NCBI GenBank assembly: GCA_964648715.1
Contig: CAZYNM010000008.1
Span: 1-57,944, forward strand
Origin: an uncultured Pseudomonadales bacterium
GTDB lineage: Bacteria; Patescibacteriota; Microgenomatia; UBA1400; PJMF01
DNA length: 57,944 nucleotides
Direction of reading: 5' to 3'
A program made the position numbers and the translations under genes. Shown piece after piece: positions 15,485 through 40,749 of the stretch. Numbering within the stretch: position 1 is the stretch's first letter; each line of letters opens with the position of its first letter. A model generated the notes under the pieces. The model searched no databases and was not told the origin of the DNA. It saw nothing but the letters and a program-made list of their open reading frames with translations.

Positions 15485-16966
15485 ATGCAGTTATACAACA
15501 CTCTTTCACGCACCATAGAGAAGGTGACAGGCTATTCCTCAAACCATTTGGGTTTGTATGCATGTGGACTAACAGTTTATGATTACACCCATTTGGGGCA
15601 TTTACGTAAATATACTTTTGATGACATCTTGGTGCGTGTACTACGTCATGCAGGCTTTAATGTCAAGTTTGTGCAAAACGTCACTGATGTTGGTCACCTG
15701 GCTTCAGATGCAGACACGGGCGAAGACAAATTAGAAAAGGGTGCTAAAAAATATGGTAAAAGTGTGTGGGATATTGCCCAAGAATTTGAAGACTACTTTT
15801 GGTACAGCATGGAGTTGATGGGCAACCTCAAGCCAGATGTCAGCTGCCGTGCCACTGAGCATATACAGGCACAACTGGCAATGGTGATAGAGCTTGAAAA
15901 AAAAGGCTTCACTTATGTAATTGGTGGTGATGGTGTGTACTTTGACACAAGTAAGTTAGACGATTATGGTAAATTGGCTGGGTTTGATCCCGATGCCTTG
16001 CAAGAGGGCGCACGGGTGGAGCCTGTTGCAGGAAAACGCAATAAAAGTGATTTTGCGTTATGGAAGTTTGAGCGTCCTGGAGAACACAGAGCAATGGTCT
16101 GGGAAAGTCCCTGGCACACGCGCAGTTTTCCTGGGTGGCACATTGAGTGTAGTGCAATGGCTATGCAGTACCTTGGCGCACAGTTTGAGATCCATACCGG
16201 AGGAATAGATCACATTCCAGTTCACCATACCAATGAGATTGCGCAGGCTGAAGCAGCCAGTGGTAAAAAACCCTTTGTAAAGTACTGGGTACACCACAAC
16301 TTCTTGAGAGTAGACGGTGAAAAAATGAGCAAATCACTGGGTAATTTCTTTACCATTGATGATGTTATAAAAAAAGGTTTTAGCCCTCGTGCGCTCCGTT
16401 TGTTGTTCCTTACCACTCACTATCGAAGCCAAATGAACTTTACTTGGGATACCCTGGAAGGTATGCAAAAGACGTATATACGTTTTCTCCAGCAAGTTGT
16501 TTCGTGCAAAAATGAAGCGGGAAGAACAGTCTTAAGTACAGAAAAATTAGAAAAAGTAGATACCTATAGAGCACGCTTTTATGCAGCGTTAGAACATGAT
16601 CTTAACACAGCTGAAGCAGTACCTATTGTGTGGGAAGTGATGAAGTCTAATATTCCTGGAGGTGATAAATACGACCTTATCGTAGAGTTTGATGAAGTGC
16701 TGGGGTTGGGTGTGCGTACTGCCGAAAAATATTTGACAGAGATCACATCACAACAAACAGCTACGACTTTTGCAGCCACTGATACACAGCTTCCAGCAGC
16801 AGTCCGCCAACTTTTGGCAGAACGTGCTGCAGCCAGGACTGCACGAGATTGGAATCAGTCAGACGAAAAGAGAGATGCACTCATCGCCCACGGGTACCGT
16901 GTTATTGATAAAACAAGTGAAGAACAGCTTGTCGTTCGGCTCACTGAAAACACGAACCCTGCATAA
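15485..16966 (+). CDS. cysS: Cysteinyl-tRNA synthetase
   Basis: [29 protein letters not shown]. Confidence 0.98.
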
Positions 16967-37674: not shown

Positions 37675-38640
37675 TTAGTCTTGATCGCTCTCATCACCCG
37701 TAGCTTGGGGATCATAGTCTGGGTTTTCCAAGGCAGCCTTGGTTTCGGTGAGTATAGACATGATATCTCCCTCGAGGATGGTCTCTAGACTGAACCATGA
37801 CTGTTTGGTGCGATGATCGGTCACTCTGTTTTGAGGAAAGTTGTACGTACGTATTTTCTCAGCACGCTGTGCACGACCAATGAGGCTGCGAGCATTACCC
37901 AACTCACGTTGACGCTTTTCTTCTTCTAGTTCCCAGAGCTGAGAGCGCAAAAGTTCCAATGCTATCTTTCTGTTTTGATCTTGTTTTTTTTCTTGACGAG
38001 CATTAACTACCACCCCAGTAGGGAGATGCACCAAGCGGACAGCGCTATTCACTTTATTTACGTTCTGTCCTCCCGCACCACCAGCTCGCATAAAGGACCA
38101 TTCAAGATCTTCTTCACGGATAGTAATGGCAGTAGGGGGTATTTCTGGAAGCACTGCTACGCTTGCAGTAGAGGTATGGATACGACCTTGTGATTCGGTC
38201 ACTGGTACACGTTGTACGCGGTGTACACCGGTTTCATACTTGAGAAGTTCAAAAGGAGTGAGTGGAATGCCATCGGTTCGTGAAATACCCATCACTTTGA
38301 CAATGAGATCATCAATCATGCCACATTTGAGGCCATGTGCTTCTGCAAAGCGCATATACATACGCAAAATTTCACCTGCCCAAATTTTTGCTTCATCTCC
38401 ACCAGCTCCACCACGGATTTCAATGGTGCAGTTGCCACGTTTTCCTGTTTCGGTTGCATCTGGCGTACTCGTTTCGTGACTGGTAAGCTGAGCAGCAGCT
38501 TCTTCAAGAGTCGCTTTTTGTGCGCGTAGGCTCTCAACTTCATCTGTTGCAAGCTCACGCATGCTAGGATCACTCAACAAGAGTTCGGCCTCTGCAATTT
38601 TATCTTCTAATTCTTTGATGCTGTGTTCGTAGGGATTCAT
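37675..38640 (-). CDS. prfA: Peptide chain release factor 1
   Basis: [11 protein letters not shown] (PxT), GGQNVNK, RTYNFPQ. Confidence 0.95.
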
Positions 38641-38697
38641 ACAATGCTCACTCCAGTATACCAAACGATACTGGGAGCTAGGTGCACGCCAATAACA

Positions 38698-39087
38698 CTA
38701 TTGTGCGGGTGTACTTGCTTTGGTGGCAGCGCGAAGAGCGGATTGTTGTTCTCGGAGAAGTTCGCGGTATGATTTGCTGGGACCTGCAGGAACTTCAGTT
38801 TTTTGTTTCTTGTTTGTGCGTTCTTCTCTCAGTTTCTTCTGTTCAGCAGCAAAAAGCTGTTTCTTCTTGAAGCCATCAACACGACCCTTGAGGTCAACGA
38901 AGCGCATCTCTCCAGTGAAGAAGGGATGTGATTTTGAGGTGATATCGGTTTTTATGACATAGTGAGTCACACCATCGATATCCATGGTTTCGTTACTTTT
39001 GATTGTTGAAGCACTAATAATTTTGTCACCAGTAGATACGTCGATAAAGACGACTGGGTGAAGTGTGGGGTGAATGCCTGTTTTCAT
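38698..39087 (-). CDS. rpmE: 50S ribosomal protein L31 type B with C-terminal extension
   Basis: MKTGIHP, S.SHPFFTG, GRVDGF; no Cys. Confidence 0.92.
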   Translation of the reverse strand: MKTGIHPTLHPVVFIDVSTGDKIISASTIKSNETMDIDGVTHYVIKTDITSKSHPFFTGEMRFVDLKGRVDGFKKKQLFAAEQKKLREERTNKKQKTEVPAGPSKSYRELLREQQSALRAATKASTPAQ

Positions 39088-39117: not shown

Positions 39118-39146
39118 ATTATATCAGATCACATACCTTATAGCAA
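39118..39146 (-). promoter_or_regulatory. Sigma70 promoter for rpmE
   Basis: TTGCTA-17 nt-TATAAT with extended TG. Confidence 0.75.
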
Positions 39147-40468: not shown

Positions 40469-40493
40469 AAAAAATCCCGCCTATGTGCGGGAT
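40469..40493 (-). terminator. Attenuator terminator upstream of hisS
   Basis: ATCCCGC-ACATAG-GCGGGAT followed by a T run on the minus strand. Confidence 0.85.
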
Positions 40494-40527
40494 GGTGACG
40501 TACTTTTTGAGCACACAAAACCATCCC
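40489..40527 (-). promoter_or_regulatory. Antiterminator hairpin of hisS attenuator
   Basis: GGGATGGT (40527-40520) pairs with ACCATCCC (40496-40489), which overlaps the terminator 5' arm. Confidence 0.8.
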
Positions 40528-40572
40528 TCAGGCGAGAGTATGATGATGTGCTGCAGTACACTTACTAAACAT
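40528..40572 (-). CDS. His leader peptide MFSKCTAAHHHTLA
   Basis: ATG TTT AGT AAG TGT ACT GCA GCA CAT CAT CAT ACT CTC GCC TGA, upstream of hisS. Confidence 0.85.
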   Translation of the reverse strand: MFSKCTAAHHHTLA

Positions 40573-40578
40573 AGGTGT

Positions 40579-40587
40579 AGTATACCA
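40579..40587 (-). promoter_or_regulatory. Extended -10 for hisS leader
   Basis: TGGTATACT, 6 nt before the leader ATG. Confidence 0.75.
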
Positions 40588-40644
40588 TCGCCAGAACACT
40601 TAGCCAAATACGAAAGGGGTGTTACAATACAAGATGCACATTGA

Positions 40645-40717
40645 GGGCCCGTAGCTCATCTGGTAGAGCGCTGCATTCGCATTGCAGAGGCGGTCGGTTC
40701 GAGTCCGATCGGGTCCA
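40645..40717 (+). tRNA. tRNA-Ala(CGC)
   Basis: GGGCCCG/CGGGTCC acceptor with G3:U70, CTGCA-TTCGCAT-TGCAG anticodon arm, GTTCGA T-loop; CCA not encoded. Confidence 0.95.
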
Positions 40718-40749
40718 CTCAGTATGTGGAACAACACCTTGAAACATAT

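Follow-up and report, generated by a model that had tools for sequence, protein, structure and literature searches.

How might bacteria of the Patescibacteria, or candidate phyla radiation (CPR), adjust the expression of an aminoacyl-tRNA synthetase (aaRS) to the supply of its amino acid? These are uncultured organisms with reduced genomes, for which a dependence on external amino acids is assumed, and to our knowledge almost nothing is known of their gene regulation. The question is raised by a short element on the minus strand of contig CAZYNM010000008.1, a stretch of 57,944 nt taken as a whole (hereinafter the window), where it lies upstream of hisS, the gene for histidyl-tRNA synthetase (HisRS). 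The original prediction, made from the letters of the window, had read it as a leader in which a ribosome translating histidine codons decides whether transcription proceeds into hisS. Having examined the window and a set of related loci, we propose that the leader is a ribosome-mediated transcription attenuator, which senses charged tRNA-His and sets transcription into hisS, and we give this interpretation a probability of roughly 0.85. Support for it comes from a conserved open reading frame (ORF), the spacing between the -10 box and the leader ATG, the terminator, the co-variation of the pairing segments and the spacing of His codons, stop codon and the segment that follows the stop (segment 2).

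Examination of the window recovers, on the minus strand and where the original prediction had placed them, a promoter, an ATG 6 nt downstream of its -10 box (the intervening letters being ACACCT), three CAT codons, a stop codon, the pairing segments and a terminator (Table 1). Pfam likewise confirms that the target gene encodes HisRS. The promoter is of the sigma-70 type, scoring 9/12 plus the TG dinucleotide in the promoter scan. No Shine-Dalgarno sequence precedes the leader ORF, and from the promoter geometry transcription is predicted to start at, or adjoining, the A of its ATG. The terminator has a GC-rich stem of 7 bp, and nowhere else in the 58 kb of the window was a strong hairpin with a T6 run found.

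Table 1. Positions of the leader element, of its surroundings in the window and of related features in other loci (columns: feature; position; strand; evidence or remark)
-35 hexamer TTGGCT	40607-40602	minus	promoter scan; 17-nt spacer to TG/-10
Extended -10 TGgTATACT	TG 40587-40586; TATACT 40584-40579	minus	sequence and promoter scan
Leader ORF MFSKCTAAHHHTLA, 14 codons and stop	40572-40528	minus	ATG 40572; stop TGA 40530-40528
Regulatory codons CAT CAT CAT, His9-His11	40548-40540	minus	sequence
Segment 1 AGCACAU.AUCAU.CUCUC, spanning His and Thr-Leu codons	40552-40534	minus	RNAfold minimum free energy (MFE) structure; pairs with segment 2
Segment 2, GAGGGAUGGU (core 40529-40520), U-rich tract and GUGUGCU	40529-40510	minus	RNAfold; pairs with segment 1 or 3
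GGGATGGT (RNA form GGGAUGGU)	40527-40520	minus	directly 3' of the TGA stop
ACCATCCC (RNA form ACCAUCCC)	40496-40489	minus	antiterminator partner
Segment 3 ACCAUCCCGCA, overlapping the terminator 5' arm	40496-40486	minus	constrained folds and duplex permutation test
Intrinsic terminator ATCCCGC / 6-nt loop ACAUAG / GCGGGAT + U6	40493-40469 (stems 40493-40474; T6 40474-40469)	minus	terminator scan, constrained fold
Shine-Dalgarno-like AAAGGAA, 3 nt 5' of hisS ATG	40445-40439	minus	sequence
hisS (histidyl-tRNA synthetase, 415 aa)	40435-39188	minus	Pfam tRNA-synt_His and HGTP_anticodon; homologues
tRNA-Ala(CGC) gene	40645-40718	plus	divergent from the hisS leader
Promoter-like TAGCCA-16-TACAAT with TG	within 40601-40718	plus	back-to-back with the leader promoter
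Promoter-like TTGCTA-17-TATAAT with TG	39118-39146	minus	strong; between hisS and rpmE
rpmE (L31)	38698-39087		
prfA	37675-38664		
cysS	15485-16966		only other synthetase gene of the window
ORF of 1268 aa	11648-15454	plus	no Pfam match
ORF of 695 aa	46161-48248	minus	no Pfam match
Attenuator and tRNA-His(GTG)	L058:2725-2915; L057:2724-2982; L128:891-1269; L119:703-881		
Attenuator and tRNA-His(GTG)	L127:216-416; L052:1438-1674; L066:674-918; L068:2154-2416		
Asp/Glu-racemase-family gene	L075:2269-2970		under His attenuator, upstream of hisS
M20 (ArgE/DapE-family) peptidase	L052:1837-2955; L119:1411-2478		under His attenuator, upstream of hisS
HisG and class I/II aminotransferase	L034:1158-2988		under His attenuator, upstream of hisS
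HAD hydrolase	L028:566-1228		under His attenuator, upstream of hisS
Extra RNA motif	L001 ~2885-2975; L003 ~2835-2925; L165 and L170 ~1870-1960; also L173, L174		between attenuator terminator and hisS

The RNA of this leader can adopt competing structures. For the leader as a whole the folding energy is -35.4 kcal/mol (z = -3.6), a stability that 0 of 200 dinucleotide shuffles attained; the MFE structure of the leader consists of a hairpin between segments 1 and 2 and of the terminator, leaving the first 11 nt, including the AUG, unpaired. The 1:2 hairpin, which is 24 bp long in its extended form and has an energy of -23.4 kcal/mol when folded alone with RNAfold, joins the His codons and the next two codons to GAGGGAUGGU...GUGUGCU. 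When the RNA is folded from the stop codon up to the terminator loop, segments 2 and 3 form an antiterminator of 8+2 bp with -19.0 kcal/mol (including an inner hairpin), as against -11.5 kcal/mol for the weaker terminator. This 2:3 pairing is also the best fold, at -18.4 to -19 kcal/mol, when the terminator 3' arm is blocked together with the His codons and a further 10 nt. Pairing of GGGAUGGU with ACCAUCCC takes up 5 nt of the 5' arm of the terminator or, with the CA/UG extension, all 7 nt of that arm, and the 2:3 antiterminator and the terminator formed by segments 3 and 4 are mutually exclusive. The original prediction had correctly set the 2:3 pairing against the terminator but had omitted the 1:2 hairpin over the His codons; once this hairpin is counted, the four-segment layout of the trp/his attenuators is complete. 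In the window as in relatives, the terminator scan scored the 1:2 hairpin and the UUUU that follows it as terminator-like, and the hairpin together with its U-rich tract is a possible pause site.

In the attenuation mechanism that we propose for this leader, the 14-codon ORF would be translated as a leaderless mRNA from an AUG at or next to the 5' end of the transcript. With no ribosome on the leader, segment 2 would be held in the 1:2 hairpin and the 3:4 terminator would form. A fast ribosome would reach the UGA and mask GGGAUGGU just past the stop, such that segment 3 would pair with segment 4; the AUCCCGC/GCGGGAU stem with its U6 would then be made, and transcription would halt 33 nt before hisS. 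If His-tRNA(His) were scarce, the ribosome would instead stall on CAU CAU CAU, covering segment 1 and leaving segment 2 free to pair with segment 3, no terminator would arise, and RNA polymerase would enter hisS. The 1:2 hairpin and U-rich tract might act as a pause that synchronizes the ribosome with the polymerase. From the arrangement of the parts we infer the transcription start, leaderless translation, stalling on CAU, pausing and the regulatory output. The sequence-level features of the class of trp/his/phe/thr/leu attenuators (clustered regulatory codons, here for His; a terminator; a 2:3 pairing opposed to 3:4; a 1:2 pairing; and suitable spacing) are all found in the leader, and the ribosome footprint sizes behind the spacing are established knowledge.

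His-rich upstream ORFs (uORFs) and compensatory stem changes in related genomes had been named by the original prediction as the signs by which it could be checked, and both were found. A HisRS protein query yielded 80 loci from species-representative genomes and 80 from metagenomes, and exact-protein look-ups of close homologues added 14; their hisS upstream regions were scanned first and the whole loci (L numbers below) afterwards. Nearly all of these loci belong to Microgenomates-type Patescibacteria, namely Pace-, Woese-, Shapiro- and Roizmanbacteria. Many, including L001, L002 and L004-L006, come from bins labelled Limisphaerales, Methylococcaceae, Pseudomonadales or Gammaproteobacteria; such labels on these typical Patescibacteria bins are probably wrong. 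The scans recovered 43 distinct elements of like architecture near hisS, all on the hisS strand. In every one of the 43, the leader ATG follows a -10 hexamer at 6-10 nt and lacks a Shine-Dalgarno sequence, and the -35 of relatives is often of the TTGACA type, at the distance seen in the window; the hisS genes themselves bear AAGGA-type Shine-Dalgarno sites. An intrinsic terminator was found in all related elements, and the leader peptides carry HH to HHHH in 40 cases and in-frame HxH in the other three. The relative with a 94%-identical HisRS has the leader peptide MFLQRTAAHHHHTLA; further examples are MTTQIVITTHHHHTLD, MLQNTILLATHHHSHI, MKMTLQTRLATHHTRHI, MKNTFAQAHHHTTQC, MKTPPMSASAHHALL, MEQLNTVHHHHA and MIFAKVISNHHHTTK, with MELRSLAHSHSTTKTVAGAV as an example of the HxH type.

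AT-rich intergenic DNA commonly holds short ORFs and hairpins, and the leader could accordingly be thought a chance pairing of a short ORF with a terminator. The architecture was sought with a scan blind to the encoded amino acid, which asked for a -10 match of at least 5/6, an ATG soon after it, an ORF of 7-29 codons and a strong terminator within 90 nt. Run over ~1 Mb on both strands (~2 Mb), it returned 29 candidates, and all 29 contain at least two His codons. His makes up 2.6% of the codons in the genes of the window, and HH is expected in a random 15-mer with p ~1%. Set beside the 43 conserved instances and the z-score of the fold, these figures make a chance combination barely credible, and the comparative data effectively refute it. 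The same architecture did not turn up a second time as a leaderless-ORF attenuator in the scan of the 58-kb window, and no leader was found at cysS, which adjoins the preceding ORF.

The composition of the leader ORFs further suggests that the His codons are read as codons. In relatives these ORFs comprise 12-26 codons with the first His at position 8-13. Of the 29 elements tallied, 24 have their last His 1-4 codons ahead of the stop, and in the others the ORF crosses segment 2. Segment 2 starts 5-17 nt past the last His codon and mostly within a few nt of the stop. The His codons alternate synonymously (CAT:CAC = 75:18), exactly one codon parts them in the HxH loci (n = 3) such that the frame is kept, and gaps within the ORF are multiples of 3 nt among the ten closest relatives (A6). 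The peptide 5' of the His cluster diverges freely yet its frame stays open, and the other two frames hardly ever offer an ATG-initiated ORF.

These observations bear on the alternative of an untranslated RNA switch, in which the CAUCAUCAU tract would serve as a T-box-like specifier for the GUG anticodon of tRNA-His, or as a ligand or protein site, and binding would stabilize the antiterminator without a ribosome. CAY codons are indeed complementary to the tRNA-His anticodon, a GUG-containing stretch 3' of segment 2 is conserved, and in Firmicutes hisS is usually under T-box control (PMC2965389). However, the synonymous His codons with their one-codon spacing and the 5' region that varies yet stays open speak against such a switch, as does the presence, in 43 of 43 loci, of an ATG in the His frame 6-10 nt past the -10 and of an in-frame stop at or after segment 2. 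As for the conserved GUG, it is accounted for by the extended 1:2 hairpin, where it pairs with codons further upstream. Moreover, the element is only ~100 nt long and shows no Stem I, no K-turn and no T-box bulge with the conserved UGGN, and neither a T-box nor any other riboswitch model matched it, even at E<=10. On this balance the untranslated switch is very improbable.

The searches with covariance models covered the window region and 20 related loci, in which no Rfam family was found at threshold. The T-box model (RF00230) had no match in the window at E<=10 nor in the 20 related loci. His_leader (RF00514) was likewise without a match in the window at E<=10, and reached 16.7 bits against a cut-off of 49 in the relative L003. 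The best match of a leader family in the window was Trp_leader (23.5 bits against a cut-off of 41), which covered the terminator part only; other weak, generic matches to Trp, Thr, His and Phe leaders were similarly limited to the terminator part. Separately, a T-box-like string (GGATGGGACCGCG; AAAGGATGGGACCGCGGGAGGTCCTTTTTT) was noticed in L122 at ~2325-2365, 165 nt before hisS, where no Rfam T-box matched at E<=1; it is probably an ordinary terminator.

Since alternative hairpins alone do not reveal the sensor, the choice between them might also be made by an RNA-binding protein, such as a HutP-like His sensor or HisRS itself, with the ORF being incidental; autoregulation of an aaRS through binding of its leader RNA is known from E. 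coli thrS. Such a protein would leave unexplained the conserved leaderless ATG, the open frame, the in-frame His codons and the position of the stop, and, besides the codons, no repeated protein-binding motif is conserved across the 43 elements. We regard control by a protein as very improbable indeed, and hold to the translating ribosome as the sensor.

Evidence on the RNA side of the proposed attenuator comes from the matching of segments 2, 3 and 4 within loci. Each element was folded twice, once freely and once under constraints that mimic a stalled ribosome, namely a block on the terminator 3' arm, on the His codons and on ~10 nt more. The free folds of relatives show a 1:2 hairpin and the terminator, an equivalent 1:2 pairing being present in all; in the blocked folds the stretch just past the stop, that is segment 2, pairs with the terminator 5' arm. 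The resulting antiterminators have 7-16 bp and -10.6 to -20.7 kcal/mol, usually outweigh the terminator and usually sequester 5-8 nt of its arm. Segments 2 and 3 vary in sequence by lineage and match each other within the locus, as well as their own terminator 3' arm: GGGAUGG is found with CCAUCCC, GGGGUGGUU with AACCGCUCC, UUGGCGG with CCGCCAA, GCGGCGG with CCGCCGC, and GGGAGUU with AACUCCC and a segment 4 that again reads GGGAGUU. On average the 2:3 duplex has -14.9 kcal/mol for segments of the same locus and -11.1 kcal/mol for cross-locus combinations; 0 of 20,000 permutations reach the own-locus mean (p<5e-5, an optimistic value since the loci are phylogenetically related). The same test applied to the terminator arms gave -12.5 against -8.8 kcal/mol, and the matching effect for 2:3 is hence as large as that for the undoubted terminator. 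The own 2:3 duplex had z<-2 relative to shuffles in 35 of the 43 loci. The 5' side of the 1:2 hairpin is constrained by coding, and the matching test covers segments 2, 3 and 4, which by this permutation test co-vary.

This co-variation also bears on the notion that the element is an independent small gene or small RNA (sRNA) with its own promoter and terminator, hisS being transcribed from another promoter. Promoter and terminator do bound a self-contained transcript of ~104 nt, and several relatives (L009, L012, L013, L015, L017 and L004) have a second TGnTACAAT-type promoter between the terminator and hisS, which suggests a constitutive promoter beside the attenuated one in these loci. In the window, however, the hisS ATG follows the U-run at a distance of only 33 nt, and the promoter scan found no promoter-like site between terminator and hisS. 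An ordinary terminator has no need of an antiterminator that shares its 5' arm, yet here such an antiterminator is conserved and co-varying. Finally, the peptide is unconserved apart from His, and the element is invariably found on the strand of hisS, ahead of histidine-related genes, so that a gene of this kind is a highly unlikely account of the element.

Beside the relatedness of the loci mentioned above, several points weigh against attenuation of hisS by a translating ribosome. The leader has only three regulatory codons, and segment 2 begins just 9-12 nt after the third of them; given this short distance, a ribosome stalled on the third His may partly occlude segment 2, and the effective stalls would be those on the first or second codon. 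The helices are thermodynamic predictions, and intrinsic termination, hairpin pausing, initiation at a 5'-AUG (by 70S ribosomes) and tight coupling of transcription and translation are all presupposed for CPR bacteria. About two-thirds of the related hisS loci are without such an element in the flanks examined. In addition, MAFFT and RNAalifold applied to 17 trimmed elements recovered the terminator only, as indels, variable loops and shifts of register along the repeated His codons stood in the way of a single consensus for 1:2 and 2:3; it was for this reason that folding under constraints in each locus and the permutation of own versus cross-locus duplexes were used.

Some of the attenuator-less loci have a feature of their own. 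In L007, L018, L020, L023 and L025 the hisS ATG follows a TGnTACAAT/TATAAT box by 6-7 nt, and hisS itself appears to be leaderless there. Leaderless starts, as far as promoter geometry indicates, look common in the Patescibacteria lineage studied.

In the clade of the window the element stands directly 5' of hisS; elsewhere in the sample other genes follow it. The terminator is succeeded by a tRNA-His(GTG) gene and then hisS in L057, L058, L128 and L068, and in L052, L066, L119 and L127 the attenuator is followed by tRNA-His, small ORFs, a peptidase of the M20/ArgE-DapE family and finally hisS. The gap between terminator and tRNA-His is as short as 9-22 nt in some loci, and at 16 nt in L058 there is therefore no room for another promoter. 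This would mean that a ribosome-mediated attenuator drives a tRNA gene; our limited literature search found no description of leader-peptide control of a tRNA gene, which is not proof of novelty. Two arrangements around tRNA-His were noticed besides. L068 has two tandem His attenuators, at 2154-2246 and 2477-2590 (MMFIKSNHHHAH, MLIKFVPHHTHTVVFTPRGWC), which flank tRNA-His upstream of hisS, and in L014 (2868-2940) tRNA-His lies directly before hisS without a His leader peptide, two terminator-like hairpins preceding it.

A second group of partners resembles racemases. Between the attenuator and hisS, L006 (2294-3001) and L036 (2283-2999) encode a protein of ~235 aa with a DapF fold, whose best matches, all sub-threshold, are the histidine racemases CntK and HisR among NCBIfam models and diaminopimelate epimerase and histidine racemase in the PDB. 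In L021 (2058-3989) the DapF-fold domain is fused in frame to HisRS in an ORF of 643 aa, and L029 and L106 carry the same leader as L021. This association suggests that interconversion of D- and L-histidine might be linked to charging; nothing relevant on racemase-HisRS fusions was found in the literature, in a search too limited to prove novelty. Other genes under a His attenuator upstream of hisS are given in Table 1, and the hisG gene of L034 indicates that at least some relatives keep parts of histidine biosynthesis. Taken as a whole, the downstream genes independently tie the element to histidine. For the supposition of the original prediction that the organism scavenges histidine, the racemase-like and peptidase genes of relatives provide indirect support, and hisG in one relative counts against it. 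The placement of the element before racemase-like genes and an M20 peptidase may point to regulated scavenging of D-His or of His-containing peptides.

One subclade, to which the window does not belong in this respect, has an additional conserved RNA motif of ~90 nt between the attenuator terminator and hisS. It consists of a UUGAGC...GCUCA helix broken by tandem G.A/A.G, a variable inner hairpin and an AAGGCA-loop-UGCC hairpin, with compensatory changes at 10 of 15 predicted pairs in six sequences. The motif matched no Rfam family and may be a second regulator in tandem with the attenuator.

Several features of the neighborhood in the window are of separate interest. A tRNA-Ala(CGC) gene is divergent from the hisS leader, with a promoter-like site back-to-back with that of the leader, and this divergent tRNA-Ala(CGC) neighborhood is also kept in L001-L003, L006, L021, L024 and L036. 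On the other side of hisS, the promoter-like site ahead of rpmE probably provides rpmE and prfA with a promoter of their own, without dependence on the attenuator. Of the two large ORFs that lack a Pfam match, the one of 1268 aa stops 30 nt before cysS.

If the element works as proposed, its presence in a conserved form implies that in Patescibacteria translation begins at AUGs located at the 5' end, that its coupling to transcription is close enough to let a ribosome govern RNA polymerase, and that intrinsic terminators are in use. It likewise implies that these cells monitor the charging of tRNA-His and adjust HisRS to it, and that relatives do so for tRNA-His itself and for putative enzymes of histidine salvage. 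A broader reading, which we put forward tentatively and at somewhat less than even odds, is that of a lineage-wide, leaderless, ribosome-based His sensor in Microgenomates-type Patescibacteria, which occupies the place of the Firmicutes T-box and controls a whole His-charging module. No report of attenuators in CPR/Patescibacteria was found in the literature, the search being limited and no proof of novelty. The value of the element lies in where an attenuator occurs and in what it controls, and not in a new principle. The family-wide picture, with control of tRNA-His, racemase-like partners of HisRS and the tandem RNA, is the more interesting one, and all of these lie outside the window. The element is also small and concrete enough to be addressed by metatranscriptomics or heterologous reporters, and could serve as a template in the search for further amino-acid sensors of these bacteria.

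The mechanism itself is textbook, and in principle both the synthetase target and the leaderless start were known before. The original prediction had called the combination of the two in a CPR-like genome unusual; precedents exist in the leaderless aaRS leader peptides predicted for Deinococcus deserti (PMC4007540) and in the His leader predicted before a hisS paralogue in bacilli (PMC2965389). The closest classical counterpart is hisL of E. coli and Salmonella (RF00514), which shares with the element of the window the tandem His codons, the mutually exclusive 1:2, 2:3 and 3:4 pairings, the intrinsic terminator and the sensing of charged tRNA-His through stalling. Unlike the synthetase gene here, the target of hisL is a biosynthetic operon, and hisL has seven His in a row, whereas the leader of the window has three in a leaderless ORF without a Shine-Dalgarno sequence. 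Neither sequence nor covariance-model similarity connects the two, and the origin of the element is probably independent.

With respect to the target, leader-peptide attenuation with cognate codons before an aaRS gene is established for pheST of E. coli (the pheM leader) and predicted for trpS and leuS of Streptomyces (PMC1262725). These systems differ from the present one in amino acid and phylum, the proteobacterial leaders being translated from a Shine-Dalgarno sequence. A His leader has been predicted in bacilli before a hisS paralogue (hisS*) and hisZ (Naville & Gautheret 2010, PMC2965389), and likewise before his operons in several Firmicutes (PMC9413887). The leader of hisS*/hisZ resembles ours in its short ORF with a His run, its terminator and antiterminator, its HisRS-family target and its recognition by comparative genomics alone; it differs in belonging to Firmicutes, in serving a paralogue or regulatory subunit and not a sole housekeeping hisS, and in not being reported as leaderless.

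As regards the start, 14 leaderless leader peptides with mapped starts are predicted to attenuate aaRS or amino-acid genes in D. deserti (de Groot et al. 2014, PMC4007540), an example being a cysS leader with two Cys codons. In mycobacteria, attenuation is exerted by poly-Cys uORFs that are leaderless (bioRxiv 10.1101/834739). In both cases, as proposed here, the leader ORF begins with the transcript; both come from other phyla, and the D. deserti starts were mapped experimentally, whereas the start in the window is predicted from promoter geometry. Finally, the hisS T-box of Firmicutes shares its target and its logic with the attenuator proposed here: when tRNA-His is poorly charged, the terminator upstream of hisS does not form. 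There the tRNA binds a structured RNA of 200-300 nt, whereas here the sensing would be done by a ribosome translating a leader of ~100 nt.

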